A stretch of DNA of 45,860 nt, from positions 1 through 45,860 of the forward strand of contig SBHG01000173.1 of NCBI GenBank assembly GCA_006226305.1, written 5' to 3'. Source of the stretch: Alphaproteobacteria bacterium. GTDB taxonomy: Bacteria > Pseudomonadota > Alphaproteobacteria > M2410. A program made the translations under genes and the position numbers. This document shows, piece by piece, positions 12,438 to 31,140 of the stretch. Every line of letters begins with the position of its first letter. Positions within the stretch are counted from its first letter, which is position 1. Below the pieces are notes generated by a model. That model searched no databases. It saw only the letters and a program-made list of their open reading frames with translations, and was not told where the DNA came from.

Positions 12438-12529
12438 TGCTTAAGTTCCTCCCGGCGCCGAATGATTTTTATCTTTTGCAAAACTATAGACCCCCCTGAA
12501 ACCTCTGCCAACCGATGCGGTGGTTTAAG

Positions 12530-13360
12530 TTAGATCTCAGCCTTAGCCATCATGATTTCATGACCTTCAGCGCTTTCGATCCAGAACTGACCCCCATGTT
12601 CTGCGCGCAGGCCCTTAAGCAGATAGGCCTCGTTCACAAAGAGGGGTTGAACCGCCCGAAAGGAAAAGGATTTCAGAGGACTTCCCAGGGACCGCCCGGC
12701 GAATCCGGCAAGCTGGGTTGCCATCAAGGGCCCATGCACCACAAGCCCTGGATAACCCTCCACATCGCGCACATAGGCAAGATCATGATGAATACGATGC
12801 GCATTGAAAGTCACAGCGGAATAGCGAAAGAGCAAGACCTCATCGGCCATGCAGGCTTCCTGCCAGTCCGCGTTCCTTGGATCGGTTTTGCGCCGACCGA
12901 CAAAGCCGCCCGTCGGCGCTTCCCGGTAAACAATGTCCTGCCGCTCGCGCAGACACGCCTGCCCGTCCTGCAAATAGACATGTCCCACGGACACAAAAAC
13001 GAGGGGGCCACTCTTACCTTCCTTGGTCGTCACCCCCTCGATCGTTGAAAGGCGCGTCGCCGACCCGCCCAACCGCAAGGGCAGGTCTATTGTCATCTCG
13101 CCAGCCGCCCACATGCGCCTGGGTAAAGGTACCGGTGGCAAAAAGCCCCCACGCTTGGGATGACCATCCACATCCAGGTCGTGCGCCGACACCACCGGAT
13201 TGAAATAAATCCATTGCCACCCGGGCGGCAATAAAGCACCCGCCTCAATTGTCAGATCAAGATCAAACGTTGCTGCCAACCGCCGGGCCTGTTCAACCTG
13301 CAGAGCATCTTCAACCTCTTGCGTCCGGCCAATCCAGTCCTCCAGAGATTTCCCGCTCAT
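12530..13360 (-). CDS. double hot-dog acyl-CoA hydratase (HTD2/MaoC-type; itaconyl-CoA or mesaconyl-C4-CoA hydratase-like)
   Basis: DGHPKRGGFLPPVPLPRRMWA, LFRYSAVTFNAHRIH and YPGLVVHGPL. Confidence 0.88.
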   Translation of the reverse strand: MSGKSLEDWIGRTQEVEDALQVEQARRLAATFDLDLTIEAGALLPPGWQWIYFNPVVSAHDLDVDGHPKRGGFLPPVPLPRRMWAAGEMTIDLPLRLGGSATRLSTIEGVTTKEGKSGPLVFVSVGHVYLQDGQACLRERQDIVYREAPTGGFVGRRKTDPRNADWQEACMADEVLLFRYSAVTFNAHRIHHDLAYVRDVEGYPGLVVHGPLMATQLAGFAGRSLGSPLKSFSFRAVQPLFVNEAYLLKGLRAEHGGQFWIESAEGHEIMMAKAEI

Positions 13361-13369
13361 ATGATGCTC

Positions 13370-14527
13370 TTAAAATGACTTCGGCAGTCCCAGAATATGG
13401 GTCGCCACATGAGACAGGATAAGGTTGGTCGAAATCGGCGCCACCTGGTAGAGCCGGGTCTCGCGAAATTTGCGCTCAATGTCATAGTCTTCCGCAAAAC
13501 CTGCCCCGCCGTAGGTTTGCAGGGCCGTATCCCCGGCAGCCCAGGAGGCCTCGGACGCCAGGAGCTTGGCCATATTGGCCTCGCTGCCACAAGGCTTACC
13601 ACCTTCAAAGAGCGCCGCTGCCTCGCGTACCATAAGCGCCGCCGCGCGCATCTGGGTATAGGCCCGGGCCAAAGGAAACTGGATGCCTTGGTTCTGACCG
13701 ATCGCGCGCCCGAAAACTTCCCGCTCTCCGGCATATTGGCTCGCCTTGTCAATAAACCAGCGCGCATCGCCTATACATTCAGCAGCGATCAAAATGCGCT
13801 CCGCATTCATGCCATCGAGAATATAACGAAATCCCTTGCCCTCCTCTCCGATCAACGCAGAGGCCGGGATCGGCACATTGTCGAACGTTATCTGCGTTGT
13901 GGAATGGTTCATCATGGTGCGCAGCGGTGTGATGTGCATGCCCTGAGATCTCGCCTTCGCCATATCCACCAAGAAAACCGAAAGCCCGTCGCTGGGCTTC
14001 ACACCCTCCTCGCGCGGTGTTGTGCGTGCCAGAAGCACCATGAGATCGGAATATTCCGCCCGAGAAATGAAGACCTTGGAGCCGCGAATGACATAGCCAT
14101 CGCCCTCTTTGTCGGCACGCGTTTGAATGCGGGTCGTGTCGGTGCCGCTGGCCGCTTCTGTCACGCCAAAGGCCTGAAGCCGAAGCTCGCCGGAAGCAAC
14201 CTTGGGCAAAAAGGCGGCTTTCTGTTCCGGACTGCCATGTTTGAGAAGCGTCCCCATGGTATACATTTGCGCATGGGCCGCGGCGCCATTGCCACCGCTT
14301 CCGTGAATTTCCTCCAAAATCGCGGCGGCCGCCCCAAGGCCAAGCCCGGACCCGCCATATTCTTCCGGGATGAGAACCGACAGAAACCCGCCCTCCGACA
14401 GGGCATCGACAAATTCGCTGGGATAGTTTCGGGCCCGGTCACGCTCACGCCAATAGGCGCCGTCAAACCGGGAGCATAGTTTGGCCACCGAGGCCCTTAT
14501 CTCAGCGTGATCTTCCAGAAAGCTCAT
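13370..14527 (-). CDS. acyl-CoA dehydrogenase
   Basis: IPEEYGGSGLG, QAFGVTE, GMNAERILIAAE and ERKFRETRLYQVAPISTN. Start moved to ATG 14527 (MSFLEDH) because the longer ORF overlaps the kinase. Confidence 0.93.
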   Translation of the reverse strand: MSFLEDHAEIRASVAKLCSRFDGAYWRERDRARNYPSEFVDALSEGGFLSVLIPEEYGGSGLGLGAAAAILEEIHGSGGNGAAAHAQMYTMGTLLKHGSPEQKAAFLPKVASGELRLQAFGVTEAASGTDTTRIQTRADKEGDGYVIRGSKVFISRAEYSDLMVLLARTTPREEGVKPSDGLSVFLVDMAKARSQGMHITPLRTMMNHSTTQITFDNVPIPASALIGEEGKGFRYILDGMNAERILIAAECIGDARWFIDKASQYAGEREVFGRAIGQNQGIQFPLARAYTQMRAAALMVREAAALFEGGKPCGSEANMAKLLASEASWAAGDTALQTYGGAGFAEDYDIERKFRETRLYQVAPISTNLILSHVATHILGLPKSF

Positions 14528-14591: not shown

Positions 14592-16544
14592 TTAAGAAGC
14601 TGTTGGACCCCCGCGCTGGGAGCGCGGCGCATGGCGTGCATCCGGCGCGGCATATCGACGGATAAGACTAAATATCTGTTCTTTGCTAACCGGCTTCGGC
14701 AGATAGTCGTCCATTCCAATCTTGATATATTCCGCGCGGTCCTCGGACACCGCATGCGCGGTCATGGCAATGATTGGCGTCTGAAACTGAACACCTGGCA
14801 ACTCGCGAATGGCTTTCGTGGCCTCAATCCCATCCATGACGGGCATTTGGATATCCATAAAGATCATGTCGTAGAAATCATTCTGGATCGCTCGAACCGC
14901 CAATTCGCCGTTTTCCACGAATTTAAAACGCACCTTGGTGCCTTTCAGAAGCGAAGTCAGAATGATCCTGTTCACACGATTGTCTTCCGCTATCAGGATC
15001 GTCGCCTGCGGCAGGTCTTCCGGCGATAACTTTTTGGCGGGAACAAAACTCTCGACCGCCTGACCGGGGTCCGTTGTCCGGCAATTGGTCGTAAACCAGA
15101 AGGTACTGCCAAGCCCGGGCAGGCTTTCGACACCGATCTCTCCGCCCATCAGCTCCGCCAATTGTTTGCAAATCGCAAGCCCAAGGCCCGTGCCCCCAAA
15201 TCGCCGACTGATCGAATTGTCAGCCTGTGAGAATTGCTCGAACAGATGGGCCTGCGCCCCTTCCACAATTCCAATGCCCGTATCGGTTACCCGACAATCG
15301 AGCACCACGTCACCTTCACAGGCCATCGCATCAAGACTTAAGGTAACCGAGCCCTTCTCGGTGAACTTGATCGCGTTGCCGACCAGGTTGAGAATGATTT
15401 GTCGCAATCGCATTTCATCGCCAATGAGCATTTGCGGAACGTGATCGGAAATTTTGACAACCGTTTCCAGGCCTTTTTGCCGCGCCTCGTTCTCAAACAA
15501 TCGCATCGCCTGATTGACAAGGTCCTGCGGTGAAAAGATATCCTCGTCCAGCTCGACTTTGCCGGCATCAAGGCGCGTAAAGTCAAGAATATCATTGATG
15601 ATGGTCATCAAAGAGTCCCCGGACTGGGAAATCACATCGAGATATTCGCGTTGCTTATTCGTTATCTCGGTATCCTTCAAAACCGATGCCATACCCAGAA
15701 TACCGTTCATCGGTGTCCGAATCTCATGGCTCATCATCGCCAGAAAGCTGGACTTTGCATTGTTGGCATGTTCGGCTTCCGACCGCGCCGCTTCTGCTGC
15801 CTGAATGCTTTTTTCAAGAGACAGGGTCTTTTCGCAAAGCGAGTCTGCCATGTCTTCAATTTCAAGCCGATGGCGAATGGCCTCGGTTATGGACGCATTA
15901 TAAACAAAGGAAAAACGGCACATGAACCCGGAGAACAAAAGGGCGGCGGCGCCAATGACAATATCGGCGCGCGTGCCCCCCAGGAAATAGACACTCGAAA
16001 ACGGCACCACGGCTGTTGCAATAAAGGCAACAGCGGCGGGCACATAAGCTGACGACGATGCCGACGAGCCTGCAAGCATGCCGGTCGCCACGACCACCAG
16101 AATGTTAAAAGATGTGGTGCCAAACTGATCAAGGAACACAAAGGCCAGAGACCCCCACATAACTCCAAGCGAAAAACTGCCAAGGGTCACCCACCGCGCC
16201 GTTTTTCGAGTGGCATGCGCTTCCACATCAGCCAGAAAATATTCGCAGTGCCATTGCCGCGCGATAACCAGAACCATCAAAACACCGAACCAAGCGGTTA
16301 AGCGGACTTCAAGCCCCGGCTGCCACAGACCAATGACAATCACCAGACCACAAAGGGCGTTGATCGGGTTTCCGGTTTTGGCGTTCTCAAACCACAGGCG
16401 CATCTTTTCACAGAACAAGCGAGCGCCACGGGCGTCATCAGCACCCGCCCGGCCATTGCGAAACAAGTCGCGCAGTCCGATGCCGCCATTGATATCCTGG
16501 GTTTCCACCAACATTGTTGTGTGCTTTCCCCTCGCCGATTTCAC
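14592..16544 (-). CDS. membrane-bound hybrid sensor histidine kinase/response regulator
   Basis: Multi-TM N-terminus, H-box [37 protein letters not shown] and C-terminal receiver (AEDN, FMDIQMP, KP). Start may be ATG 16514. Confidence 0.93.
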
Positions 16545-16611
16545 CCCGCCGGGCCTTCCATGAGGTCATGAAAGGCGCCGTTTACCTGACGCCCAATCTA
16601 GCCGACCCCTC

Positions 16612-16626
16612 TTAAAACATGCCTAA
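16612..16626. promoter_or_regulatory. near-consensus CtrA box (TTAA-N7-CTAA)
   Basis: ttaa aacatgc ctaa between the divergent kinase and enoyl-CoA hydratase genes; one mismatch to TTAA-N7-TTAA. Confidence 0.5.
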
Positions 16627-16732
16627 GAAGCCACCTCAGATTGTTTGTAAAAGTGCCAAAAACACTTCAAAATCAGGGAAATACCTTCTTTTTTGAGGTG
16701 TTATGGAATGTTGCCATCGAAAGGGCTCGGCC

Positions 16733-17560
16733 ATGGAACTCAAGACCATTGACTATGAACAGCGCGGCCGCGTGGCTCTCATTACCCTCGCCCGGCCACA
16801 CCGGATGAACGCCTGGACAGGCCGCATGCACACAGAATATCGCCATTGTCTGGAACAGGCAGAACAGGACGCCCGTATCGGCGCCATCGTCATCACCGGT
16901 AAGGGCAGAGCCTTCTGCGCCGGCGCCGATATGGCCGCCCTCGAAGGGCACGTCGAAAAAGGCGGGTATGATCCGGGCACGCCGGACCCCTTGGCCGAAC
17001 CGGGTTTCGGCGTCCGCCCGGAATTTGATGCCTCCTTTGCCTATCACTTCGGCCTGTCAAAGCCGGTCATCGCCGCCATCAATGGTGCCGCTGCCGGTGT
17101 CGGTCTGGTGCTTGCCTGTTTCGCCGACATTCGTTTTGCCGCCAAAGGCGCAAAATTCACCGCCGCTCATGGGCGCTTCAATTTTCCAGCTGAATTTGGA
17201 CTATCCTGGGTTTTGCCACGCCAAATAGGTCTGACAAGAGCGATGGACCTGCTTCTCACCAGCCGGATATTCTTAAGCGAGGAAGCCATGGAGATGGGTC
17301 TTCTCAACCGCCTCCTTGAAACGGAAGATGTGCTCCCCGAGGCCCTGGCCTATGCGCAAAGCCTGACAGAAAACATCGCCCCGGCTTCACTTCGGGAGAC
17401 CAAATGGCAGGTCTACACAGACCTTCACCGCGATGTGGCCAGCGCGGTCAATACCTCCGAGGAGCTGATCGAAAACCTGTCAACAGAGCCAGATTACAAA
17501 GAAGGGGTCAGGGCTTTCACGCAAAAGCAAAAACCCCATTGGCGTAAATATCAGTCCTGA
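16733..17560 (+). CDS. enoyl-CoA hydratase/isomerase family protein
   Basis: GRAFCAGADM, KPVIAAINGAAAGVG and PAEFG; start ATG 16733. Confidence 0.92.
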   Translation: MELKTIDYEQRGRVALITLARPHRMNAWTGRMHTEYRHCLEQAEQDARIGAIVITGKGRAFCAGADMAALEGHVEKGGYDPGTPDPLAEPGFGVRPEFDASFAYHFGLSKPVIAAINGAAAGVGLVLACFADIRFAAKGAKFTAAHGRFNFPAEFGLSWVLPRQIGLTRAMDLLLTSRIFLSEEAMEMGLLNRLLETEDVLPEALAYAQSLTENIAPASLRETKWQVYTDLHRDVASAVNTSEELIENLSTEPDYKEGVRAFTQKQKPHWRKYQS

Positions 17561-17566
17561 GCCCAG

Positions 17567-18364
17567 TCAGGCGCACATCCCACCGTCGATCACAAGCTCA
17601 GACCCGGTGACATACCGCGACTCGTCGCTTGCCAGAAACAGGACCCCATTCGCGATCTCAACCGGTTCAGCCGCGTGACCGATCGGAACCGCCGCCATCT
17701 CCGCAACCATTTTCGCCGACAGCGTATTGGCGCCGCCAAGGGGCGTGAGATTATCCGCTGTAGAGGCGCTAATTTTCGTCCAAATCTCGGTATCAATAAT
17801 ACCCGGGTGTACACTGTTGACCCGGATCTTGATCCCGGCCCGCGCGCATTCAATTGCCAGGCTGCGCGACAACAGACGCACCGCACCCTTTGAGGCGCTA
17901 TAAGCGGAAAGCCCCGGCGCCCCTTTCAAGCCTGCGACAGAGGAAATGTTGATAATCGAGCCGCCGCCGGACTTTGTCATGAGCGGGATCGCATGTTTGC
18001 ATCCCAAAAAAACGCCGTCCACATTGATCGCCATCATCTGGCTATAGCTTTCATAGCTCATCTCGGTAATCGCGCCCCCATTACCAATGCCGGCATTGTT
18101 AACCAGGACATCAAGACCGCCGTATTCGTCTTCAATCTCACCGATAAGCTGCTGCCAACCGGCCTCCGTCACGACGTCCTGATGCTTATAGGCCGCCTTG
18201 CCGCCGCTAGCATAGATGTCGCTGGCCAGCTTTTCCCCGCGCGCGTCCTGAACGTCGGTGATAATGACTGTCGCGCCTTCACGCGCCAGCACGCGGGCAC
18301 AAGCCTCGCCAATCCCAGCTGCACCGCCTGTAACCAATGCTATTTTTCCTGCCACACGTGACAT
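17567..18364 (-). CDS. classical short-chain dehydrogenase/reductase
   Basis: TGGAAGIG, NNAG, YSASKGAV, NSVHPG and TGSELVIDGG. Confidence 0.95.
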   Translation of the reverse strand: MSRVAGKIALVTGGAAGIGEACARVLAREGATVIITDVQDARGEKLASDIYASGGKAAYKHQDVVTEAGWQQLIGEIEDEYGGLDVLVNNAGIGNGGAITEMSYESYSQMMAINVDGVFLGCKHAIPLMTKSGGGSIINISSVAGLKGAPGLSAYSASKGAVRLLSRSLAIECARAGIKIRVNSVHPGIIDTEIWTKISASTADNLTPLGGANTLSAKMVAEMAAVPIGHAAEPVEIANGVLFLASDESRYVTGSELVIDGGMCA

Positions 18365-18482
18365 GTTTCCTCCTCCTGATCTGCGCCGACTCTAGTCGGC
18401 ATTTTGTTATTGCCCGATCTTGTCATCAAGCTAGAGTGGCGACCATCAAAAAACAACGGGCCCCACAAAAAGAGACAGCGAC

Positions 18483-18881
18483 ATGTTCGAGCTCCACCCC
18501 AGACTGGCCGAGGACACCTTGGAGATTGCCCGGTGGTCTCTCTGTCATGTGCACCTCATGAAGGACGCCCGCTACCCCTGGATCATACTTGTCCCGGCCC
18601 GCGCAAACATCCGCGAGTTTCATCATTTAGCCGAGGCCGATCAGATCACGCTCTGGAATGAAATCCGCCGCGCGTCGGAGGGGCTTGAAAAGGCAACCCA
18701 TGCGGAAAAATTAAATGTCGCGGCACTTGGCAATATGGTGCCTCAGCTTCACGTCCACATTATTGCCAGGTTTTCCTCAGACCCCGCCTGGCCCGCGCCC
18801 GTATGGGGTGTCGGGGAGGCCGTGCCTTATGATCCGGCAGACGAAAAAAAACGCATCGCAGAATTTCTGCAATGCGTTTGA
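18483..18881 (+). CDS. HIT-family hydrolase
   Basis: YPWIILVP, KLNVAALGNMVPQLHVHIIAR and DPAWPAPVWG. Confidence 0.92.
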   Translation: MFELHPRLAEDTLEIARWSLCHVHLMKDARYPWIILVPARANIREFHHLAEADQITLWNEIRRASEGLEKATHAEKLNVAALGNMVPQLHVHIIARFSSDPAWPAPVWGVGEAVPYDPADEKKRIAEFLQCV

Positions 18882-18906
18882 TCCTATCCCAATAGAGATC
18901 ATCCGA

Positions 18907-19299
18907 TTACTCGTTCCCGGACGTCTCCACTTTTTCGACTTCTTCAAACAGGCCCAGACCACAAGTCGGCCCAGAAACAGCGCCGCCGGTTAAAACCGTA
19001 ATCGTGTCCGAAGAGCAGAGCGTCGACCCATAGACCTTGTAGGAAAAGGCCTTGTAGAAATTAAGAGACGAACACTCATGCGGCAGAGTGTTAAGATAAA
19101 GACGACGGCCATTCATTTTGAAAAGAATATGCGATCCATCAAGGACCCGGGTCGTCCGGATATCGCTCAGGTCCAAACATTTTTCCGTTTCCCCGGTCTT
19201 CTGATAACCCTTGAGCACATCCGCGTCATCCGCCAGAGCGGGCGCCGAGGTACAAAAACTCATTACCAGCAGCCCCGCCGCCATTTGCTTAATCGTCAT
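18907..19299 (-). CDS. small exported Cys-containing protein (DUF6491-like)
   Basis: Signal peptide ending PALA; CL..SDIR...LD...ILF...YLN.L...C...LC..D.I...C pattern; ATG 19299 behind GGAGG. Confidence 0.65.
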   Translation of the reverse strand: MTIKQMAAGLLVMSFCTSAPALADDADVLKGYQKTGETEKCLDLSDIRTTRVLDGSHILFKMNGRRLYLNTLPHECSSLNFYKAFSYKVYGSTLCSSDTITVLTGGAVSGPTCGLGLFEEVEKVETSGNE

Positions 19300-19437
19300 G
19301 TGATCCTCCTTGTCTCGGGTCAGCGACTTTGCAGTCGCTTTCTGTCGCCCCACAGCCGAGAAGATAAACCTATTATGATTTGTTGAAATTACAAGAAAAT
19401 GACGCCGGACATCATCACACCCACGGCACTTTGCAAC

Positions 19438-20607
19438 TCATGACCCGGTCAGATAGCCAGGTCTTTCAACCTGCAGTTTCGAACCCAGCCACCCCTTGAC
19501 CCAACCCTTGTTGCGTTCAATTTCTGTCGGCACGCATTCGCCGCCATCATAGGTCAGCTGCAAGAGTTCATGCTCCTCCAGCATCAAACTGGCGTCGACC
19601 ATTCTGTCAAACATGCGGCCTGCCCAATGAGCTGATCGCTCTGGAACTTGCGGCAATTCGCCGACACTCTCCAGCAAATTGTCGATCCGGCGTTCCAGAT
19701 GATGGCGCGATCGGGCGGCACCCCAAAGCAGGAGCGTGCTCACGCCCAGTTTTTTGGCCAGAACATCCGCACCGCGATTTTTGCGATGATCAAACTCGAC
19801 CAGGGATTTCGGGATCGGTCCAAGCCAGACCTTCCCCTGAGCATTCATCCAGTTCATGCCCCACTGCCCAAACCGCGCATGCCAATAGTGGTCGACAAAG
19901 GCCTTGTTTTCCTTGTCGGGGTGGACAGCAACAGTTCGCGCGACGTCCAGCACACGATCGCCAAAAATAGAAATTCCATCGGCCGCCCAGCTTCCTCTCT
20001 GCGGATCAAAGGCCGGAAAATTCAGAACATCAAATCGAATGCGGCAAAGGGCTTCAATTTCCTTTGCCAATTTATCCCGAAAGGCCGCACGCTCTGCCCC
20101 CCAGCGTGTCATGTTCTTGTACCGCATGACGGCACTTGATGAGATCGTAATGGATTCCATCGCCGGCCCGCGGGTTTTACTTAATGCCCCCGGCTCGCAA
20201 AGCTGTGCCAAAAACACGATAAGCGTATCAACGGTGAGAGGTGAAAAATGTTCAACAACAGCCCACTGATCGTCAAGCCCATCACGCCCGCCCGGCAGGT
20301 CAACATAAATGATCACCTGCCCGCTCTTTTTACCGATGTGCCGATAGGTCAGCCGCCCGGTCTCGTCGACGGCCCACCCCCCCTGAAGTTGGCGAGCATG
20401 CTCGCCGCCTTTAAAGAGCGCAGCAATTACCGCCGCAATAACCGGATTATTGGGGATGCGTCCGATCTTTTCAGGAAAGGCATTTGCAAGCCCCCGATCC
20501 AGACGCTTCAACCGTTTCAGGTCTTGCGATTCTTCTGTACGAATGAGAGGAGACATTGGATTGGTCTCCAGCTGCCCTGTCTCTCTCTCCGTTGACACTC
20601 GTTTCAT
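19438..20607 (-). CDS. hypothetical 389-aa protein, possibly replication-initiator-like winged-helix
   Basis: Long soluble ORF with AGGAGA/GAGG upstream and its own sigma70-like promoter; shares motifs with the neighbouring ORF 20851-21648. The fold is inferred. Confidence 0.75.
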   Translation of the reverse strand: MKRVSTERETGQLETNPMSPLIRTEESQDLKRLKRLDRGLANAFPEKIGRIPNNPVIAAVIAALFKGGEHARQLQGGWAVDETGRLTYRHIGKKSGQVIIYVDLPGGRDGLDDQWAVVEHFSPLTVDTLIVFLAQLCEPGALSKTRGPAMESITISSSAVMRYKNMTRWGAERAAFRDKLAKEIEALCRIRFDVLNFPAFDPQRGSWAADGISIFGDRVLDVARTVAVHPDKENKAFVDHYWHARFGQWGMNWMNAQGKVWLGPIPKSLVEFDHRKNRGADVLAKKLGVSTLLLWGAARSRHHLERRIDNLLESVGELPQVPERSAHWAGRMFDRMVDASLMLEEHELLQLTYDGGECVPTEIERNKGWVKGWLGSKLQVERPGYLTGS

Positions 20608-20713
20608 CTAGCCACGCGCCTCTCCAACACAGGCGAATAAATCCGTCGCGACAACAGGCCGCACACGGACAAAGCTTGTGACCCCTTCAGATGACCCTTT
20701 ATCAGTCAAAGAG

Positions 20714-20755
20714 AATCTATGAGCGACGTTACTAAAGTGTCAACATCCGGGATGT
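20714..20755 (-). promoter_or_regulatory. sigma70-like promoter of the 389-aa gene with adjacent palindrome
   Basis: Minus strand TTGACA (20743-20738), 18 nt spacer, TAGATT (20719-20714). GANTC at 20713-20717 overlaps the -10 box. Palindrome ACATCC-G-GGATGT at 20743-20755 abuts the -35 box. Confidence 0.6.
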
Positions 20756-20850
20756 GAAATTAACCAATAACAACATGAAATCAGCGTTCTAGGAGGGACC
20801 CGTGACAAAACGCCGCCTGATCTGGGGTATTAAAGAACGCCAAGCAATAA

Positions 20851-21648
20851 TTAGTGGCGTGTCGGCGCCTCCAAAGGCAGGTTAGAATTAGAATGTGTCC
20901 GGACATCTAACAGGTCTTCAAAGTGTTGGACCGACAGTCGGTCCGCCGGACAGATAATAAGCTCTGCTTGTTCCAAGAGGTGAATGGCCTCCAGCCAAAC
21001 TCTAGGATCGGCTTGAATGTCAGAATGCTTGATCACCATATCCCGGAGCACAGGTTGCACAACCAGCGGCATCTGAAATGCTGTCTGACTCTCCGCCATC
21101 TTCGCCAGAATAAGTTTCGCAGAGGAGGCAACTTCTTCTGTCGATGCTGAATACAAGGCAACAATTGACCGCGCAATAAAGGACCGCTCCAGATCATTGA
21201 GTTGCCAATGAGACCACAACCCCATCCGAACCCACCAGGCTGCGCGAACAAGCCGGTTGCCATAAATCTGTGTACGGATGATATCAAGAATCGGGATCCC
21301 GGCATCATCACTTGTTACCAGCGACGAACCCTGCCGTCTCAAAACGGCAGGCTCGAGGCGCAATTTCTCCAAGAGGGCCCTAAGGCGTGCTGCCGGCATG
21401 AACGGCAAATATTCCTTCAGGTCGCCCACTGTTACAGGCAGGGGTGTCGCAAAGGGGTCTTGCCGCCCTGCCGCTTCGGCCCGCGCCAGCGTGAGCTTCA
21501 TCAGGGCGACCAAAACCGCAGCCTCGCCTTCCGGCATCGCCGCGATGGCCTCTGTGAGCTGACCCAGAAGCCGCGCGCGGTAAGGCACCTGTAATTTATT
21601 GAGTCTTGGCAGGGTCAATTGGGCACACCCATCCGTCGGCGCACGCAA
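20851..21648 (-). CDS. hypothetical protein, shorter divergent paralog of the 389-aa protein
   Basis: 265-aa ORF with uncertain start (TTG 21648, TTG 21618 or GTG 21588; an in-frame TAA lies just upstream). Motif blocks are collinear with 19438-20607. Confidence 0.62.
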   Translation of the reverse strand: MRAPTDGCAQLTLPRLNKLQVPYRARLLGQLTEAIAAMPEGEAAVLVALMKLTLARAEAAGRQDPFATPLPVTVGDLKEYLPFMPAARLRALLEKLRLEPAVLRRQGSSLVTSDDAGIPILDIIRTQIYGNRLVRAAWWVRMGLWSHWQLNDLERSFIARSIVALYSASTEEVASSAKLILAKMAESQTAFQMPLVVQPVLRDMVIKHSDIQADPRVWLEAIHLLEQAELIICPADRLSVQHFEDLLDVRTHSNSNLPLEAPTRH

Positions 21649-22018
21649 GCGTGTCGCCTGTTAATAAAATCGGGGTGCTCAAATTCTGTTACCACAGACC
21701 CTTTTTCATAATCTGAAAAAAGAGCCGTTCTGGTTATCTTCTTATCTGCGATGTCCAAGCTGTTTCAAAATGACACCAAATCAAGGCCTTATGGTAAAAC
21801 CGCGGCTAAATGCTGACGGATTAAGCAGGAAATACTGCCAGCTAACGGAGTTTTTGATGCCCACATACGGGGGTTTAGCCAAACCCAGGCGCCTAACCGC
21901 CCTAAACCATTCCCCCTTTACCATAATCGTTAATAATTGGCAGTTTTCCGCGATTTCTACGGGAGGCGTCACAATAACCCCCGCAACACGGCACCAAATC
22001 CTGCGCGATTTGGAAGGA

Positions 22019-22034
22019 TTAATTTTTCCTTAAC
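22019..22034 (+). promoter_or_regulatory. CtrA box (TTAA-N7-TTAAC)
   Basis: ttaa tttttcc ttaac, exact consensus, upstream of flp. Confidence 0.85.
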
Positions 22035-22049
22035 AGCTAAGTCTCTGTT

Positions 22050-22065
22050 TTAACGAAGTTTTAAC
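22050..22065 (+). promoter_or_regulatory. CtrA box (TTAA-N7-TTAAC)
   Basis: ttaa cgaagtt ttaac, exact consensus, 31 bp from the first box. Confidence 0.85.
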
Positions 22066-22283
22066 GTTTACCAATACCACCGACAAGAGATATGAGACCC
22101 TCCAAAACCCGCAAATTCCCAATTTTGCCTCTGCTATAGTGCCTGGGTCAGTATCCAGTGATGGGGTGTTACGGTGGTTCTGACGTGGGTAAATGGGCTG
22201 ATCGGCGGGGGGAATTTTCCTGACATTCCGGCAGACCATTTGAACTAGTCACTCTCAAGATTTTGAATATGGGAGATTATCAA

Positions 22284-22478
22284 ATGTTGAAACTTTACGT
22301 AGCGGCTCAACGTCGGTTCCATGATCTGAAGGAAAAGACTGAAGGCGCCACCATGATCGAATACTCGCTTCTGATCGGCCTCATTACGGTTGCCGTCATT
22401 GCTGCGATTATTTTCGTCGGTACGTGGGTAAGTGGTCGTTGGACAGCACTTCAGACCGCTCTGACACCGGCTCCATAA
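22284..22478 (+). CDS. flp: Flp/PilA type IVc (Tad) prepilin
   Basis: Leader ending EG|ATMIEYSLL (Flp E5-Y6 motif), hydrophobic helix, 64 aa, GGGAG RBS. Confidence 0.95.
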   Translation: MLKLYVAAQRRFHDLKEKTEGATMIEYSLLIGLITVAVIAAIIFVGTWVSGRWTALQTALTPAP

Positions 22479-22515
22479 ACTTCGGACGGCCTTTTTCCCA
22501 AAGGCAAGAATACCT

Positions 22516-22558
22516 CGGTGTCTTGGGGTCGTCAGATTCCAAGACACCGTTCCTTTCT
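22516..22558 (+). terminator. stem-loop with weak U-tract between flp and cpaB
   Basis: CGGTGTCTTGG (22516-26) pairs with CCAAGACACCG (22539-49), extendable to a GTCA tetraloop, followed by TTCCTTTCT. Confidence 0.65.
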
Positions 22559-22580
22559 AGAATTTTTAGGAGCAGCTGCA

Positions 22581-23444
22581 ATGCGATCGACCGGGATTTT
22601 AATGCTCATCGTGGCAATAGTTGTTGGCGGCATCACCGCCTGGTTGGTAATGAATTTCTTGCAAAACCAGGCCCAGCCGGTGGCCCAGCCGCAGGCATCA
22701 ACGACGATCGCGCAAACAACTGTTGTGGTTGCAGCCACCAAGCTTTCCTTTGGCGACAACCTGACACGGGACAATCTGAAAGAAGTTTCCTGGCCCACGA
22801 ACAACGTGCCGCCTGGCTCTTTTAAGACCATCAATGAAATTCTTGACGGCGCGGACCGCCGCGTGGCCCTTCAGAATATGGAGCCCAATGAAATGGTCCT
22901 GCACAGCCGTGTTTCCGGATTTGGCGGACGGGCGACCCTGTCGCAAGTCATCAGCGACGGCATGCGCGCCACAACAATCCGCGTTAACGACGTCAATGGC
23001 GTCGCTGGATTTGTTTTACCGGGCGACCGGGTCGACATCATGCTGACACGCAATACAAAAACCGGATCAGCAGCACGCGATTCCATGGTCACCGACGTTA
23101 TCATCCAGAACTTACGTGTCCTGGGCGTTGACCAGATTTCCAACGAAGACACCTCCGAACCGGTGGTACCAAAGGCGGTGACCCTGGAGGTCTCCCCGGA
23201 AGATGCACAAAAGCTCTCCCTGGCCGCCTCAATCGGAACTTTGACTTTGTCTTTGCGCAACTACGTAAGCGCGGGAACCGAAGAAGCAACCCGGTACAAA
23301 ACCATCAGCGTCAATGACCTCAGACCCGTGGGCGCCAGATCAACCTCGTCGTCGGCTCCGACACCAGCACCGACCTATACCAGTCCCACCGTGCGCGTGA
23401 CGCGCGGGACGACGTCGAGTTCACAAAAAGTGGCGCGAGAATAA
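22581..23444 (+). CDS. cpaB: Flp pilus assembly protein CpaB/RcpC
   Basis: N-terminal TM, SAF-like VVVAA...FG, GMRA...GVAGFVLPGDRVDI and AVTLEVSPEDAQKL; ATG 22581 behind AGGAG. Confidence 0.95.
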   Translation: MRSTGILMLIVAIVVGGITAWLVMNFLQNQAQPVAQPQASTTIAQTTVVVAATKLSFGDNLTRDNLKEVSWPTNNVPPGSFKTINEILDGADRRVALQNMEPNEMVLHSRVSGFGGRATLSQVISDGMRATTIRVNDVNGVAGFVLPGDRVDIMLTRNTKTGSAARDSMVTDVIIQNLRVLGVDQISNEDTSEPVVPKAVTLEVSPEDAQKLSLAASIGTLTLSLRNYVSAGTEEATRYKTISVNDLRPVGARSTSSSAPTPAPTYTSPTVRVTRGTTSSSQKVARE

Positions 23445-23508
23445 ATCAATTCAAGAGATAATCATTCATCGGACACAAGTAGCGACGATCAAGCAAGGGC
23501 AAGGGGCC

Positions 23509-24921
23509 ATGACATCAAAAGATATCAGCACTAAGACACTTTCAAGATGGGGTCGCTTGGCAGCCATGGCCTTAGCGCTTGGCGCGGTGACGGCCTCACC
23601 GCTATCGGCACAGGCTCAACCGACCTCGGGCGCGGCGGTCAGCGTCGATCAGGACGATTCAAGTTATGCGGGTTATGTCACTGTACCGCTCAGCAAGTCA
23701 CGCATCTTGCGCGTCAATTCCTCGGTGCAGGAGCTTTTGATCGGCAACCCGGATGTCGCCGACGTTATGCCCCTGACTAACAAATCTGTTTATGTGCTCG
23801 GCAAGTCGATTGGCTCGACCAGCCTTTCAATCCTTGGCCCAGGCAAGAAATTGATCGCCGTTGTCGATATTCGCGTCTCCCACGACACGCGCAGCCTTAA
23901 ACGCGACCTCTTTGAGATCCTCCCTGATCAGGTGATTGAGGTTAGAGCCGCCAATGATTCCATCATTCTCTCCGGCATGGTCGACTCAAGCGCCGATGCC
24001 TCCCAAGCCGCAGCCATCGCCGAGCGGTATGCCCCCGGTCGGGTATCTAATTTTCTCGGCGTCAGCAACTCGCAGCAAGTGATGCTCTCGGTTCGCTTTG
24101 CCGAGGTTAAGCGCAACCTGGCAAAACAGCTGGGCCTGAGATCTGAAGTCTCCTGGGACAACGGCGGCGGCCACACGGCCGGCATGGTTTCCGGGATCAT
24201 CAATCCCGATGCTTTCGCGACCTTGACGGGCACCAAATTCATCGGTGAGGCCGATGTAGAACTCATGCTGGATGCCCTGGAAGAAAAAGGCATCGTGACT
24301 ACTCTCGCCGAGCCGACCCTGATCGCCAAATCCGGCGAGACCGCCAATTTCCTGGCCGGTGGGGAGTTCCCGGTTCCGGTACCGCGTACGACAAACGGAA
24401 GTGACGAATCCAACAGCATCTCAATCGAATTCAAAGAATATGGGGCTTCCCTGGCTTTCACGCCAACGGTGCTCGGCGACAATATTTCCCTGATCGTCGA
24501 ACCAGAAGTCAGCCAATTGGATTTCCAATCCTCGATTGAGCTGGGTGGCTACCGTGTCCCGGGCCTGACCACGCGCCGCGCAAAGACCTCTGTTGAAATG
24601 AAAAATGGGCAGAGCTTTGCCATCGCCGGTCTTTTGCAGTCCGAGTTCACCGACAAAGTTTCTCAGATTCCGGGTATCGGCGATGTGCCTATTCTCGGCG
24701 CCTTGGCCCGCAGCGCTGAATTTGAGCGAAACGAAACGGAGCTGGTCATCATTATCACCCCGCATTTCGTCAAACCGGTCAATCCAAAGGACCTCAAACT
24801 GCCAACCGACTATGTGGTCAAACCGCACGATCTTGAGTTATTCTTGGCAGGCGTGGTCGAATCAAGCCGACTGAAACACTACGAAGGCATCGACGGTGCC
24901 GTCGGATATATCATCGAGTGA
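23509..24921 (+). CDS. cpaC: Tad secretin CpaC/RcpA
   Basis: Signal peptide, GNPDVADV, QVMLSVRFAEV, LAEPTL..SGETANFLAGGEFPVP and ETELVIIITP. Confidence 0.95.
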   Translation: MTSKDISTKTLSRWGRLAAMALALGAVTASPLSAQAQPTSGAAVSVDQDDSSYAGYVTVPLSKSRILRVNSSVQELLIGNPDVADVMPLTNKSVYVLGKSIGSTSLSILGPGKKLIAVVDIRVSHDTRSLKRDLFEILPDQVIEVRAANDSIILSGMVDSSADASQAAAIAERYAPGRVSNFLGVSNSQQVMLSVRFAEVKRNLAKQLGLRSEVSWDNGGGHTAGMVSGIINPDAFATLTGTKFIGEADVELMLDALEEKGIVTTLAEPTLIAKSGETANFLAGGEFPVPVPRTTNGSDESNSISIEFKEYGASLAFTPTVLGDNISLIVEPEVSQLDFQSSIELGGYRVPGLTTRRAKTSVEMKNGQSFAIAGLLQSEFTDKVSQIPGIGDVPILGALARSAEFERNETELVIIITPHFVKPVNPKDLKLPTDYVVKPHDLELFLAGVVESSRLKHYEGIDGAVGYIIE

Positions 24922-24938
24922 CAAAAGGAGATTTCCCC

Positions 24939-25199
24939 ATGAAATATTTCGCATTGGCAACCCTCCTTCTGTCGACGGCCTTAGGCGGATGCATTGGTCA
25001 CAACGAACCCTTGAACGCGACGTTTGGAGAAGCCCACCGCAATAATATGGCTGCCCAGATTATTGACCCGACGCCATCAGAAGAAGACGTGGTGGCCGAT
25101 GGCAACAACGCCGCCGCCGCTACCGAGCGTTATCAAACCGACAGCGTGAAAGAGCCCAAGGCTCCCAGGAGCTCATCTCTTTCCTCGGGTGGCAACTAA
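24939..25199 (+). CDS. small pilus lipoprotein resembling the C-terminal part of CpaD
   Basis: Lipobox LGGC; FGEAHRNNMAAQIIDP...ATERY; directly after the secretin; ATG 24939 behind AGGAG. Confidence 0.7.
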   Translation: MKYFALATLLLSTALGGCIGHNEPLNATFGEAHRNNMAAQIIDPTPSEEDVVADGNNAAAATERYQTDSVKEPKAPRSSSLSSGGN

Positions 25200-25258
25200 A
25201 CCATTGGGGCCGTCCTGGCACTTTAAGGTGGTCAGGACTGCTCCACACACAAATGAAG

Positions 25259-25298
25259 GGGCGTCTTTGTCGTCAGGGGACGAAGACGCTCTCTGTTT
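25259..25298 (+). terminator. stem-loop after the first tad transcription unit
   Basis: GCGTCTTTGTC (25261-71) pairs with GACGAAGACGC (25279-89) with one G-U pair, followed by TCTCTGTTT. Confidence 0.55.
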
Positions 25299-25385
25299 GA
25301 GTCTCCTCCCCCTGCAAATCACAATGGCCTAATCTCAAGTTTTTAAAAACCGGACAAATAGCAACAACCCAGCCTGAGCACTAAA

Positions 25386-25393
25386 TTAACCAT
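25386..25393 (+). promoter_or_regulatory. CtrA half-site TTAACCAT upstream of cpaE
   Basis: Exact TTAACCAT in the 390-bp gap before cpaE. Confidence 0.6.
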
Positions 25394-25589
25394 AGGAGCG
25401 AACGATTTTGACCCAATCATCACACAGCAGCTTTCCTGGATTTTTCTGCCGGAATGGCGCAAGCCTTGCACAGAAATCTGGCGAAGGGGTGTTTGGATGT
25501 TATTTGGATCAGAACTGAACGAAAAGCTTTGATCAGCGTGGGGCGTGTTCCCACAATGCAACAGGTAAACAGAAGGAACACTTTCGAGG

Positions 25590-26801
25590 ATGTCGCAGGC
25601 GTACAACCTCATAACCATCACCCAATCGGGCGCGACCGCCGGTGCAATTGAAACCGCGGCCAAGTCTTTGGGCGACCTGAGCACGGATGTGCGTCAACGA
25701 CAAAATGGCACACCCATCCTCGAGGTTCTGGGTGAAAACCAGTCCGACATTCTCCTCATTGAGCTGGATTTAAAAGATGCGGGTGCTGTGCGAGAACTTG
25801 AGGGCCTGATCCAGTCCCACCCCGGGCGCGCCACGCTGGTCACTTCGCCTCAGGCAAGCGTCCAGGACATTCGCGCTCTCATGCGTCTCGGGGTTCAGGA
25901 TTATATCCCTCAACCCATTGCCCAGGAGGACCTGGTCACCACGCTCAAAGATACCATCGCGAACATTTCCAAAAGCAAAAATGCCGCCGAGTCCACGGAT
26001 GGAAAGGTGATCACCTTCCTGCATACCTGCGGCGGTGCCGGCGCCACCACTCTGGCTTTACAGCTTGCCGCGGGCCTCCGGGGCAATGGAGAAGCTTCCG
26101 TCGGTCTGCTCGATTACGACCTTCAATTCGGCAATCTGGGTCTGTCCCTCGACCTGGTCCCGACCTCATCTATCCTGGACGTCATGGATTCCGGGTCGCG
26201 CCTTGACCCCTCGCTTCTGCAGACAGCGATGACATCCCATCGTTCGGGTATCAATGTCCTGACCGCACCAAAGGTAATCTACCCTCTTGATGCCATGTCC
26301 GCTTCGGGCGCCGTCTCCATTGTCAAAACCGCGCGTCGAACCTTTAATTTCACAATTATCGATCTGCCGCATACCTGGACCAATTGGACCCAGCCGGTCC
26401 TCAGCGCCTCCGACATGGTCTTTTTGGTTCTCGAGCCCAATGTCACCTCGGTCCACCGTGCTCAAAAGATTATCGACGCCCTGAATAACCTGGATCTTGA
26501 AAACCTGCCCCTTGTACTTGTTGCCAATAAAGCCGAGGGCGGTTTAACCGGACGCCAGCGTGTTTCTGACGCGGCGGAGGCCTTAAAAAAGGACATTCCC
26601 ATCACAATCAGGGCAGACAGCCGGGATATTGAAGAAGCCCGCAACCGCGGCATCCTCCTAAAAGAGCTCAATGATCGCTCGGGCGCCTACAAAGACATGC
26701 AGCAGCTCACGGACAAGGTATTGTTGGAACTGCGCCCGGACCTGCAGACGGCATCGGCCACAAGACCAGATCATCTCTTTACACGCTTTCGCAGGAAATA
26801 G
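25590..26801 (+). CDS. cpaE: pilus assembly protein CpaE/TadZ (atypical receiver + MinD/ParA-like domain)
   Basis: Receiver-like N-terminus (ALMRLGVQDYIPQP), GGAGATTLA, LLDYDLQFG and IIDLP. Confidence 0.92.
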   Translation: MSQAYNLITITQSGATAGAIETAAKSLGDLSTDVRQRQNGTPILEVLGENQSDILLIELDLKDAGAVRELEGLIQSHPGRATLVTSPQASVQDIRALMRLGVQDYIPQPIAQEDLVTTLKDTIANISKSKNAAESTDGKVITFLHTCGGAGATTLALQLAAGLRGNGEASVGLLDYDLQFGNLGLSLDLVPTSSILDVMDSGSRLDPSLLQTAMTSHRSGINVLTAPKVIYPLDAMSASGAVSIVKTARRTFNFTIIDLPHTWTNWTQPVLSASDMVFLVLEPNVTSVHRAQKIIDALNNLDLENLPLVLVANKAEGGLTGRQRVSDAAEALKKDIPITIRADSRDIEEARNRGILLKELNDRSGAYKDMQQLTDKVLLELRPDLQTASATRPDHLFTRFRRK

Positions 26802-26823
26802 GTTGGCAAGGAGTACTTAAGCC

Positions 26824-28245
26824 ATGGCATCAGACCAGATCAAAGGACCCGAAAAGAAGGAAAAGGGCTTTCGCAGCTTTTTCTCCTCATCGGAAGGACC
26901 GGATTTAGAGGCAGATGTTTCTGAAAAGCCTCACCGAGCTGAGCCAACCCTGCGCGGCCACTCCTTTGAAACCTCTGACAAATATCTTGATCTGAAAGTT
27001 CGCCTCCACCAGGAGGTCATTCAGAACATCAACCTCAGCGCCCTCGACAAGATGACGCATGATGATGTTCAGCTCGAAATCTCCGGCTTGGTGCGATCCA
27101 TGTTGGAATCGGAAAAAGTGCCGATGAACGCTACCGAGCGGAACAAACTCATTGGCGAAGTGGTTGATGAACTTTTAGGTCTTGGCCCCATCGAGCCGCT
27201 CCTCAAAGACCCGACCGTCAATGACATTCTCGTCAACACCTATCAGCAGGTATTTGTCGAACGCAGCGGGATGTTGGAACTTACGGATGTCCAATTCAAG
27301 GACGAGGCGCATTTGCTGCGTATCATCGACAAGATTGTCTCCAATGCCGGGCGGCGCATTGATGAATCCAATCCGAAAGTCGATGCGCGGCTCCCAGACG
27401 GGTCCCGGGTGAATGCCGTTATTCCTCCGGTCGGCGTGGACGGATCCCTCTTGTCGATCCGTAAATTTGCCAAGATCCCGATTGACATCAAAAAGATGAT
27501 CGAGATCGGCTCTTTAACTGAAGAGAACGCCCGCATTCTTGAAGGGATTGTACAAGCCCGGCTCAATGTTTTGATTTCCGGCGGGACCGGGACCGGTAAA
27601 ACGACGTTGCTAAACGCCCTCTCCTCCTTCATTGGCAATCACGAGCGGATCATCACAATTGAGGACGCGGCCGAGCTCCAGCTGCAGCAAACCCATGTTG
27701 CTCGCATGGAAACCCGACCACCCAATATTGAAGGCAAAGGCGAAATCACCCAGCGCGACCTGGTCGTCAACTCCCTTCGGATGCGGCCAGACCGCATCAT
27801 CGTTGGGGAGGTGCGCTCCGGCGAGGCTTTCGACATGCTGCAAGCCATGAACACCGGACATGATGGCTCACTAACCACGGTTCACGCCAACACGCCGCGC
27901 GATGCTCTTGGCCGGATCGAACAAATGATCGGCATGTCCGGGCTCGACCTGCCAACCCGCTCTATGCGGGCGCAAATCGCGTCGGCCATTCAGGTGGTTC
28001 TTCAAATCCGGCGTTTCTCGGACGGCACCCGTAAGCTGGTCAGCATCCAGGAACTGACCGGCATGGAAGGCGAAGTGATCACCATGCAGGAAATCTTCCG
28101 ATTTGAGCAGACGGGCGTCGATGCCGACGGAAAAGTGATGGGAGAGTTTGTTGCCACAGGACTGCGTCCGCACTTTTACGACAAGTTTCATGCCATGGGT
28201 ATTCCTGTCCCTGAAGATATTTTGGGAGGGCGCAAAAGAAGATGA
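26824..28245 (+). CDS. cpaF: Tad pilus ATPase CpaF/TadA
   Basis: [11 protein letters not shown], Walker [24 protein letters not shown] and [16 protein letters not shown]. Confidence 0.97.
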
Positions 28246-29207
28246 CCAACATTACCCTTTACATCATGTATGCCGGGCTGTTCTTAACCGCCCTCCTCCT
28301 CATAGAGGGTATGTATTTCCTCATTCACGATCTGCGGTCCGGATCGAAAGACATCAACCGCCGTATGCGCCTGATCAACAAGGAGGGCGACAACAAAGCC
28401 GGCCTTTCCTTGCTGCGCATCGAAAAACAGGGCGGCTTAACGGCCATTGCCCGCAACATGTTTCCAAAGCTCACGGATATCATGTGGACCGCGGGGGTTG
28501 TTATGCCCATCGGGCGGTTATTGGCCTTCATGGTTGGCCTCGGCCTCTTTGTGTTTCTGCTGCTTGAAACCGTCACCGCCTCGCCGCTTTATATCACGGC
28601 GCCGCTTTCTTTTGGGGTCGGCTTCGGGTTTCCTTATGGGGTTCTTAAAATCCGCTCCCATCGCCGCCAAAAAGCTTTTACCAATCAGCTCACACCAGCC
28701 ATTGATCTGATCGTGCGTGGTTTGGAGGCTGGCCACCCTGTCACCTCCGCCCTTAGCCTGGTTGCCGACCAGATGCCCGATCCTATCGGCAGTGAATTCG
28801 GGATCGCCGTGGACGAAATGACCTATGGTCTGTCCATGCAGGAAAGTCTCGACAATATGGCGCGACGCTTTCCCAACCAGGATTTGCGGTTCTTGATCAT
28901 CTCGGTCCAAATTCAGCGTGTAACCGGCGGGAACCTTGTGGAGATCCTCACAAACCTGTCCGAGGTCATCCGCGCGCGTGTCGCCATGCAAAAGAAAATC
29001 CGCGCCGTGAGCGCCGAGGGGCGCCTGTCCGGCTGGATTGTTGGTTTATTGCCCTTTTTTGTCGCGGGCTTCATCTGGCTCACCAGCCCCCAGTTTTTCA
29101 CCGAAGTCATGGACGATCCCTTGTTTATACCGCTGCAGGGCATGGCGGTTTTACTTCTTGCCCTGGGCGCCTTGACCATCTGGAAGATGGTACGGATTAG
29201 AATTTAG
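28242..29207 (+). CDS. tadB: Tad inner-membrane platform protein TadB
   Basis: RGLEAGHP, PDPIGSEF, QRVTGGNLVEIL and SAEGRLS; ATGA overlap with cpaF. Confidence 0.93.
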   Translation: MTNITLYIMYAGLFLTALLLIEGMYFLIHDLRSGSKDINRRMRLINKEGDNKAGLSLLRIEKQGGLTAIARNMFPKLTDIMWTAGVVMPIGRLLAFMVGLGLFVFLLLETVTASPLYITAPLSFGVGFGFPYGVLKIRSHRRQKAFTNQLTPAIDLIVRGLEAGHPVTSALSLVADQMPDPIGSEFGIAVDEMTYGLSMQESLDNMARRFPNQDLRFLIISVQIQRVTGGNLVEILTNLSEVIRARVAMQKKIRAVSAEGRLSGWIVGLLPFFVAGFIWLTSPQFFTEVMDDPLFIPLQGMAVLLLALGALTIWKMVRIRI

Positions 29208-29220
29208 GAGGGCGACAATC

Positions 29221-30165: not shown

Positions 30166-30229
30166 ATTACGATTGGAACCGGCATTAAACTGGCCTGACA
30201 GGGTGAGTCGCCAGAAAGAGTAAGTCCTT

Positions 30230-31129: not shown

Positions 31130-31140
31130 GTCCGCCGACA

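Follow-up and report, generated by a model that had tools for sequence, protein, structure and literature searches.

A pair of predicted initiator-fold proteins linked to a Tad pilus locus in Alphaproteobacteria

Two adjacent minus-strand genes, here called A (19438-20607; ATG start, 389 aa) and B (20851-21648; TTG start, 265 aa), lie divergently from the flp pilin gene and the tad pilus operon in contig SBHG01000173.1 of an Alphaproteobacteria bacterium (GenBank assembly GCA_006226305.1), the whole 45,860-nt stretch of which was analyzed and is referred to as the window. A was predicted to possess the dual winged-helix (WH1-WH2) fold of plasmid-type replication initiators, B was found to be homologous to A at the profile level, and genes of the A type recurred beside flp/tad genes in several lineages. 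We regard it as an even chance that A and B represent a domesticated initiator-family pair, which would bind DNA and regulate the adjacent Tad locus or itself.

Predicted structures of A and B

A structural model of A was built with AlphaFold (AF2) from 22 aligned sequences (pLDDT 81, pTM 0.85) and compared with known structures. In the Foldseek search against the Protein Data Bank (PDB), three matches were obtained at E ≤ 0.001, every one of which was RctB domains 2-3 (D2-3; best E 5.7e-5), and ranks 1-38 were occupied entirely by RctB, RepE54, a Rep-DNA complex or Pi. The VIA-align comparison gave Z 12.7 for RctB D2-3 (244/273 aligned, root-mean-square deviation 4.8), 11.3 for Pi (224/252 aligned) and 9.6 for RepE54 (201/214); the 38 top entries were initiators, with Z from 12.7 to 8.7 (one at 6.5) and covering residues 44-388, and the first non-initiator match was a single winged-helix domain with Z 6.0. 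Sequence identity in the RctB matches was 8-11%, and a PDB sequence search returned no match to the core. One cluster among the ESM Atlas neighbors of A carried Rep3_N in 36% of the members, which we treat as a lead only. Over almost its whole length, the model of A resembles dual winged-helix initiators of the iteron type.

The model of B (AF2, 9 sequences; pLDDT 75, pTM 0.74) was confident at residues 21-105 and 120-235. Foldseek found no structure matching B at E ≤ 0.001, RctB ranking second with E 0.2. Among 48,161 representative chains, the dimeric WH1 of pPS10 RepA was the best match (Z 8.5, 122/125 aligned), followed by an origin recognition complex (ORC) winged helix (Z 8.0), another Rep WH1 (7.9) and dimeric RepE (7.5), and the second domain was matched weakly by RctB (Z 6.4 over 31-225). 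Because Z values of 7-8 are common according to the search tool's own note, the fold assignment of B leans mainly on its homology to A, described below; the best match of its modelled first domain is a Rep-type WH1. The first-pass annotation, made from the letters alone, had recognized a Rep-like winged-helix pattern in both proteins, and the predicted models bear this out, both winged-helix domains of A matching RctB, Pi and RepE54 and B matching the WH1 of RepA.

Homology between A and B

Pairwise BLASTP of A against B was not significant (best E 4.8), so that their similarity could not be demonstrated from the two sequences alone and relatives were needed. Alignment by hhalign of the A family (22 sequences) with three B orthologues gave a probability of 80.7% (E 1.3e-5, 101 columns), and with nine B relatives one of 92.3% (E 5.4e-7, 197 columns), pairing A 126-351 with B 43-233. 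For the B-family set, six profile matches (P0070-P0075) were used and P0076 (1390 aa, 8 short stretches) was excluded. The same three collinear blocks that had been noticed in the first pass were paired in the alignment with nine B sequences, namely PAMESITISSSAVMRY with PFATPLPVTVGDLKEY, GDRVLDV...YWHARFGQWGMNWMN with GIPILDI...AWWVRMGLWSHWQLN, and MVDASLMLEEHELL with WLEAIHLLEQAELI.

A core-only A family (11 sequences) aligned with 13 partner-type sequences gave a probability of 98.2% (E 3.1e-14, 214 columns), a figure to be taken as transitive evidence and obtained partly by construction, in that four added partners were picked via a B-profile match and some of them match the A profile too. 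Furthermore, the B profile directly matched the A-family proteins at L016 3285-4529 (E 1.8e-13), L029 (E 6.6e-13) and L017 (E 9e-6), and such intermediate sequences bridge the two families. The profile alignment that had been proposed as a check thus detected homology, with E values from 1.3e-5 to 3.1e-14, and B is, on these alignments, a diverged and shortened paralogue of A.

Sequence family and its distribution

Neither A nor B matched any Pfam or NCBIfam model at E ≤ 1, including Rep_3 and its relatives, and neither core was matched in PHROGs or PADLOC, where only the helix-turn-helix (HTH) of a fused relative scored. Homologues of A numbered 66 at E ≤ 0.001 among 5.77 billion clusters. 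A word-based search with B returned B itself as the sole match, and a profile of three B orthologues found 10 proteins among 1.84 billion representatives. Pattern scans located 9 loci in the genomes of 185,579 species and 18 in metagenome contigs; a tblastn search of 72,556 plasmids gave no match, and no relative of A or of the protein of locus L035 was found in viral contigs. To judge from these searches, the family is rare and matches no described Pfam or NCBIfam model.

Most homologues of A were 436-517 aa in length and carried a C-terminal XRE-type HTH (HTH_3/HTH_31) past a basic linker. The subclade containing the A of the window (372-397 aa) was without this HTH, and Pfam revealed no HTH_3-type domain in the A or B of the window. 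The (near-)invariant motifs of the A family were IPNNP..GGW, LAQ-C, W-x-VR-x-G-x-W..N, DHR-x-NR, LAKK, RRxxxLL..GELP and HWAGR-x-x-DR, among which IPNNP..GGW, W-x-VR-x-G-x-W, DHRxNR and GELP..HWAGRxxDR were seen to be retained in the window. HWAGR-x-x-DR maps to helix 326-345 of the second winged-helix domain in the A model, which was taken as the putative recognition helix. In B, WH1 and the W-W-V-R-x-G-x-W hairpin are preserved, the N-terminal segment is missing and WH2 is degenerate, its conserved motif being lost, which fits the earlier description of one full-length protein and one short or degenerate partner. W138, W139, R141, G143, W145 and R155 were invariant in the nine B-family sequences.

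Among 41 relatives, A and B were each found in three genomes, that of the window (G000), one of the same genus (G001) and one of another genus of the same taxonomic family (G004), and were adjacent in all three. The B orthologues, which adjoin A in both other genomes, shared 44.6% (G001) and about 18-24% (G004) identity with B, and the B reading frame was intact (261-277 aa) in the three genomes at 18-44% identity. A core-only A profile run over 401 genomes across the class matched one genome, G000 itself; the negatives of this tally, as of the tad-subtype tally given below, include G245, which is flagged unpublished. An A profile bearing the HTH matched 108 of the 401 genomes, nearly always, beyond G000, at the XRE HTH positions only, and was discarded as uninformative on the family; a few of its matches also took in the end of the core, starting at model position 287 in G365 and 310 in G092.

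Linkage to flp/tad genes

The gene order of the window, DUF6491, A, B and divergent flp-cpaB-cpaC, was the same in G001 and G004, both flanks of the pair being syntenic across the two genera. Other arrangements were observed in more distant loci. In L013, tad genes and flp (minus strand) are followed by a partner gene (8782-9699, B profile E 1.2e-9) and an A-type gene fused to the XRE HTH (A-XRE) on the plus strand; in L014, a partner gene (4952-6085, E 1e-15) is divergent from flp, with A-XRE and tadG/tadE-like genes further along; L024 has the order cpaB (minus), partner, A-XRE; and in L025 A-XRE precedes flp and cpaB on the same strand. L026 is 96.4% identical to L025 over 1627 bp and adds a partner gene upstream, with a DDE transposase fragment upstream of that pair. 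In total, tad genes adjoin A-type genes or the pair in the window, G001, G004, L013, L014, L024 and L025/L026, which amounts to five sub-lineages and three gene arrangements, and partner-type genes stand beside A-type genes in L013, L014, L022, L024 and L026. The outer flanks vary among lineages while tad remains adjacent. At 6378-9614 of L014, a HEPN_Swt1 gene (490 aa) and two unassigned open reading frames (ORFs) were seen between the partner and A-XRE.

In a tree of 34 A-like rows, four of the tad-linked sub-lineages fell within a 24-row clade (support 93/94) and one lay just outside. The duplicate loci L009, L010, L019 and L034 were left out, together with any row that matched the profile at under 250 positions; the root was arbitrary and the partner and replicon-type rows were on long branches, and we drew no order of events from the tree. 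Every locus of the tad-linked group with at least about 2 kb of upstream sequence adjoins tad, the remaining contigs being too short to tell. The pair is an accessory of some tad loci, and the A-type clade is always beside tad as far as the context reaches.

Within the taxonomic family, A/B and the tad subtype were both present in three genomes and both not found in four (G002, G003, G005 and G006), which gave no A/B match and possess only a distant tad type (CpaB 28-31% identical); G004 carries both tad types. An attempt to define island borders from G002 and G006 was abandoned, the DUF6491 orthologues there not being syntenic with the window.

Replicon-type relatives and origin features

Two distant members of the family were found in a different setting, the replication modules of mobile elements, without tad or partner genes. 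The L029 protein is 38% identical to A (A profile E 3.4e-148) and that of L035 was matched with E 1.3e-54, and both carry the same family motifs as A. In L029, a serine recombinase gene and a MerR gene precede the Rep-like XRE gene, downstream of which are three exact 22-bp repeats (4675-4740; 0 expected in 200 shuffles) and two further ACCTCCGG copies; past the repeats follow genes for a DnaB_C helicase, a Toprim protein, an EcoRV-type restriction-modification pair and a second serine recombinase. In L035, three 21-bp arrays of different units (2856-3423; 2.7-3.1 copies, 95-100% matches) lie downstream of the Rep-like gene, with DUF5131, DnaB_C helicase and family-A DNA polymerase (PolA) genes beyond them, and this region looks like a phage- or plasmid-type origin.

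As a separate observation, the metagenome contig L029 (1-14257) forms a compact mobile element between the serine recombinase genes 221-1066 and 12156-13001 (both minus), and also contains an HTH_17 gene and a 30-bp x 2.6 array at 13956-14033. Two other loci lack tad genes in the available sequence. L016 holds a divergent A-family pair (1512-4529), in which the XRE HTH is present on 1512-2948 (minus) and absent from 3285-4529 (plus), with PEP-CTERM protein genes nearby and no tad genes in the 11-kb contig; L017, on the same contig as L034, falls outside the tad-linked group.

At the tad-linked loci, the corresponding features were not detected. A Tandem Repeats Finder (TRF) search (period ≥ 15, ≥ 2.5 copies, score ≥ 50) yielded no array in 16001-25000 of the window or in L007, L008, L014, L024, L025, L022, L026, L016, L017, L012, L020 and L021, and the sole repeat in L013 was an 18-nt, 71%-match repeat inside cpaB. 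No iteron array was present in 18800-22600 of the window, where only a 12-nt x 2.2 repeat within the coding region of A was seen. The DnaA-box consensus TTATCCACA was not found in 19300-22300 with up to one mismatch (2 in the whole window vs 5.7 expected). There was no marked AT-rich stretch, the lowest GC content being 0.42 in 150-nt windows, and the GC skew was negative from position 1 to about 40 kb with no sign change at 19-22 kb. A Pfam scan of the 46 ORFs of the window, nine of which were left without assignment, identified no recombinase, helicase, primase or parAB gene, and recombinase, helicase and primase genes were likewise not found in the 16-kb L013 and 14.7-kb L014 loci. CpaE is ParA/MinD-like but counts as a Tad component. 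The earlier remark that no parA/parB, integrase or iteron array is nearby was therefore borne out by the Pfam scan and the repeat searches. In G004, the pair is located on a 3.54-Mb chromosome.

Selection and expression

Between G000 and G001, A was 81% identical with a ratio of nonsynonymous to synonymous substitution rates (dN/dS) of about 0.055, in the range of its neighbors (70-91%, dN/dS 0.04-0.09), and B was 44.6% identical with dN/dS about 0.33, all of these ratios being rough values since dS was saturated (1.6-2.8). By this measure A is under strong purifying selection, and B is weakly constrained, though not neutral, and evolves about five times faster than A. In two RNA libraries, short contigs that match the window at 99% identity or more covered 19716-19940 (in A), 21472-21672 (at the 5' end of B) and the region of flp. 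They hint weakly at transcription and may stem from contaminating DNA.

Locus layout and candidate regulatory DNA

B (start 21648) and flp (ORF start 22263) are transcribed divergently from an intergenic region of 614 bp (21649-22262), whose GC content, down to 0.42-0.49, is ordinary for intergenic DNA. The flp gene (22263-22478, plus) matched Flp_Fap with E 3.2e-6 and 27.3 bits, under the 32.2-bit cut-off, and ATG at 22285, preceded by GGAG, is its likely true start. The tad operon (22518-31623, plus) comprises, by Pfam, cpaB, cpaC (secretin), cpaE, cpaF, tadB, tadC, a tetratricopeptide repeat (TPR) protein gene and a prepilin peptidase gene. On the downstream side of A are a DUF6491-like gene and then genes for HIT, short-chain dehydrogenase (SDR), enoyl-CoA hydratase and hybrid histidine kinase proteins.

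The intergenic region between A and B (20608-20850) is 243 bp long in the window and shorter in G001 (179 bp) and G004 (63 bp). It contains on the minus strand a promoter-like site for A (20714-20743, TTGACA-18 nt-TAGATT; 10/12 consensus matches), where G001 and G004 share the -10 region and an AAAGTGT(C/G)AAC block with the window. Upstream of B by 87 nt, the candidate operator or promoter element TATCTTCTTATCT (21735-21747, plus) is conserved in G000, G001 and G004, that is in two genera, amid diverged DNA, and includes two TATCT units 8 nt apart. It occurs once per genome locus and in none of the loci of other lineages; as a lone match in the window can easily arise by chance (44/100 shuffles), its weight derives from conservation rather than rarity. 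Two full CtrA-type boxes (TTAA-N7-TTAA; 22019-22033 and 22050-22064, plus; 2 found vs 0.26 expected in the window) stand 31 nt apart, at a distance of about 200-270 nt on the upstream side of flp. Only G000 and G001 have them, and they are absent from G004 and the other lineages. The first-pass annotation had placed A and B as leading away from a CtrA-rich flp promoter, in agreement with this divergent arrangement and the two boxes.

Proposed role and alternative explanations

The initiator role is likely ancestral in the family, given that the solved structural relatives are all initiators and that distant members adjoin iteron-like arrays and helicase genes, a parsimony argument over known relatives on an unrooted tree. 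In this reading the clade of A has become a stable chromosomal companion of one flp/tad subtype, with every origin feature gone. RepE and RepA dimerize through WH1, and as dimers they repress their own promoters by binding to inverted repeats there. By analogy, in the model that we consider most likely, A would recognize particular sites in one or both of the intergenic regions (A-B, B-flp) via the WH2 helix (HWAGRxxDR) together with WH1, and would thereby regulate transcription of itself, B and the divergent flp-tad operon, as dimeric Rep proteins repress their own promoters. B, in which WH1 and the hairpin persist but the WH2 motif and the N-terminal segment are gone, would act as a modulator of A, either through WH1-mediated pairing or through competition for the sites of A. 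Only tentatively, and with more doubt than belief, do we propose the more specific form of this scheme, in which one branch of a previously unrecognized initiator family (dual winged helix plus XRE HTH), elsewhere seen next to iterons and helicase genes in mobile elements, was recruited to serve as a specialized switch of two proteins for a surface organelle, with the full-length one binding the flp-tad control region and the truncated, fast-evolving paralogue tuning it via WH1 pairing.

Several observations weigh against such a regulatory role. Of 400 further genomes from the class, 10 had a tad operon of the same subtype (CpaB 42-51% identical, E ≤ 2e-58), and in all nine that could be assessed (the tenth, G375, was omitted as its contig is 2.1 kb) no A- or B-like ORF was found in the upstream 6-7 kb (best E 0.049), which makes the pair dispensable for such pili. 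The linkage of homologues to tad that the first pass had asked about is thus one-sided, the A clade standing beside flp/tad in five sub-lineages and the tad subtype occurring without the pair in nine of nine genomes. No binding site was identified: the element TATCTTCTTATCT is restricted to one taxonomic family, and no motif was common to the partner-flp regions of the lineages, a search of six lineages for a shared 11-mer yielding none in more than two of five. A retains every family motif of the replicon-type members, and initiator activity is therefore compatible with its sequence. Furthermore, the A of the window is devoid of the XRE HTH of its relatives, and as this HTH is present in replicon-type members too, it offers no argument for a regulator role. 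The saturated dS and the possible DNA origin of the RNA-library contigs count on the same side.

It is unlikely, in our estimate, that A is still a replication initiator with B as its helper or regulator, on an excisable or once-mobile tad island, or that the pair is the conserved relic of a replicon that delivered tad, the latter having been the second option of the first-pass annotation. Initiator activity would be in keeping with the fold of A, with its possession of all the motifs of members beside iterons and helicase genes, with the patchy occurrence of the pair and tad subtype in the taxonomic family (three genomes found, four not found) and with the DDE transposase fragment upstream of the pair in L026, but the searches in and around the pair turned up neither iteron-like arrays nor DnaA boxes nor any pronounced AT-rich stretch, and there was no recombinase, helicase or primase gene among the 46 ORFs of the 45.9-kb window or in L013 and L014. 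Many iteron plasmids use the helicase of the host, and the missing helicase gene is accordingly not decisive. Also on the opposing side, the flanks are syntenic in two genera, the site in G004 is a 3.54-Mb chromosome, and tad stays adjacent where the outer flanks differ by lineage. The relic version is weakened, and the strong purifying selection on A speaks against a decaying relic. What held of the earlier proposal of a domesticated initiator is that distant relatives lie beside iteron-like arrays and DnaB-type helicase genes and that the tad clade is without them, and the overall reading was thus partly supported.

The persistence of flp adjacency through three rearrangements suits a cis-acting link better than hitch-hiking, and together with the lack of any PADLOC or PHROGs match for either core it makes us think it improbable that the pair binds DNA for a purpose unrelated to pili and merely travels with the tad island, serving maintenance, interference with incoming replicons or defence. 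Such a function would accord with the occurrence of the tad subtype elsewhere without the pair, with the insertion of the HEPN_Swt1 gene and two ORFs between partner and A in L014, and with the fast evolution of B-type partners, as is often seen in conflict proteins. We consider it quite improbable that A alone is functional and B a decaying duplicate without a role of its own: the low identity of B between two species of one genus (44.6%, vs 81% for A and 70-91% for the neighbors), its loss of the N-terminal segment and the WH2 motif, and the return of B alone by the word-based search could be read in this way, but the ORF is intact at 261-277 aa in three genomes, six residues are invariant across nine B-family sequences, dN/dS at about 0.33 is under 1, A-type genes are accompanied by partner genes in L013, L014, L022, L024 and L026, and the AF2 model is confident over 21-105 and 120-235.

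Comparison with known systems

Rep proteins of the iteron type initiate the replication of plasmids and of Vibrio chromosome 2, and they also repress the genes that encode them. The closest structural match of A, RctB D2-3 of the Vibrio cholerae chromosome 2 initiator (PDB 5TBF, 5UBF), likewise has a plasmid-type initiator fold, is chromosome-encoded and carries extra DNA-binding parts. RctB differs from A in sequence (8-11% identity, no profile match), in having four domains and no truncated paralogue partner, and in that its origin has arrays of binding sites whereas the tad-linked loci do not. A head-to-head RctB dimer and several winged-HTH DNA-binding surfaces have been reported (PMC5397143).

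Two tandem winged-helix domains, as in the A model, are also found in RepE (mini-F), Pi (R6K) and RepA (pPS10). Unlike these Rep_3-type initiators, A is about 140 residues longer, has insertions, is not on a plasmid and lacks iterons, and its family usually bears a C-terminal XRE HTH. The L029 and L035 proteins, which are uncultured and undescribed, share the family and motifs of A, but their genes adjoin iteron-like arrays and DnaB-type helicase genes. With respect to XRE regulators, most A relatives end in HTH_3/HTH_31 and the A of the window does not, and the core is a predicted Rep-like fold rather than an XRE-associated sensor domain. As in the CtrA control of the Caulobacter pilin gene, CtrA-type boxes lie upstream of flp here, but CtrA is a response regulator unrelated to A or B; several CtrA sites at pilA have been described (PMC11264516).

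A literature search yielded no report of a Rep-fold protein at tad loci or kept for another purpose beside pilus genes. The fold is known, while the sequence family, the XRE fusion and the tad-tied clade with its truncated paralogue appear to be undescribed. A single family that includes both members with origin hallmarks (iteron-like arrays, helicase, primase-like or polymerase genes) and a tad-linked clade without them offers a testable case of initiator re-use. It also adds a new family to those available for annotating proteins and points to a candidate accessory regulator of Tad pili in uncultured Alphaproteobacteria, and the truncated, fast-evolving partner can be regarded as a natural experiment on Rep WH1 pairing. 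If the pilus-switch proposal were true, a plasmid-type Rep protein would have been turned into a transcription factor for pilus genes.

Other features of the window

An NCBIfam search of the nine window ORFs left without a Pfam assignment gave zero matches, and Rfam returned only a chance-level IRES_Bip match (17 bits vs the 40-bit cut-off). An F420-related run at 1771-4132, consisting of genes for an F420-dependent NADP oxidoreductase-like protein, F420-0:gamma-glutamyl ligase and CofD, was observed in this alphaproteobacterial metagenome-assembled genome. The stretch 40660-45842 holds an HNH endonuclease gene and, after it, four ORFs (224-386 aa) without Pfam or NCBIfam match, among which those at 43115-44275 and 44682-45842 are both 386 aa long and on the same strand.

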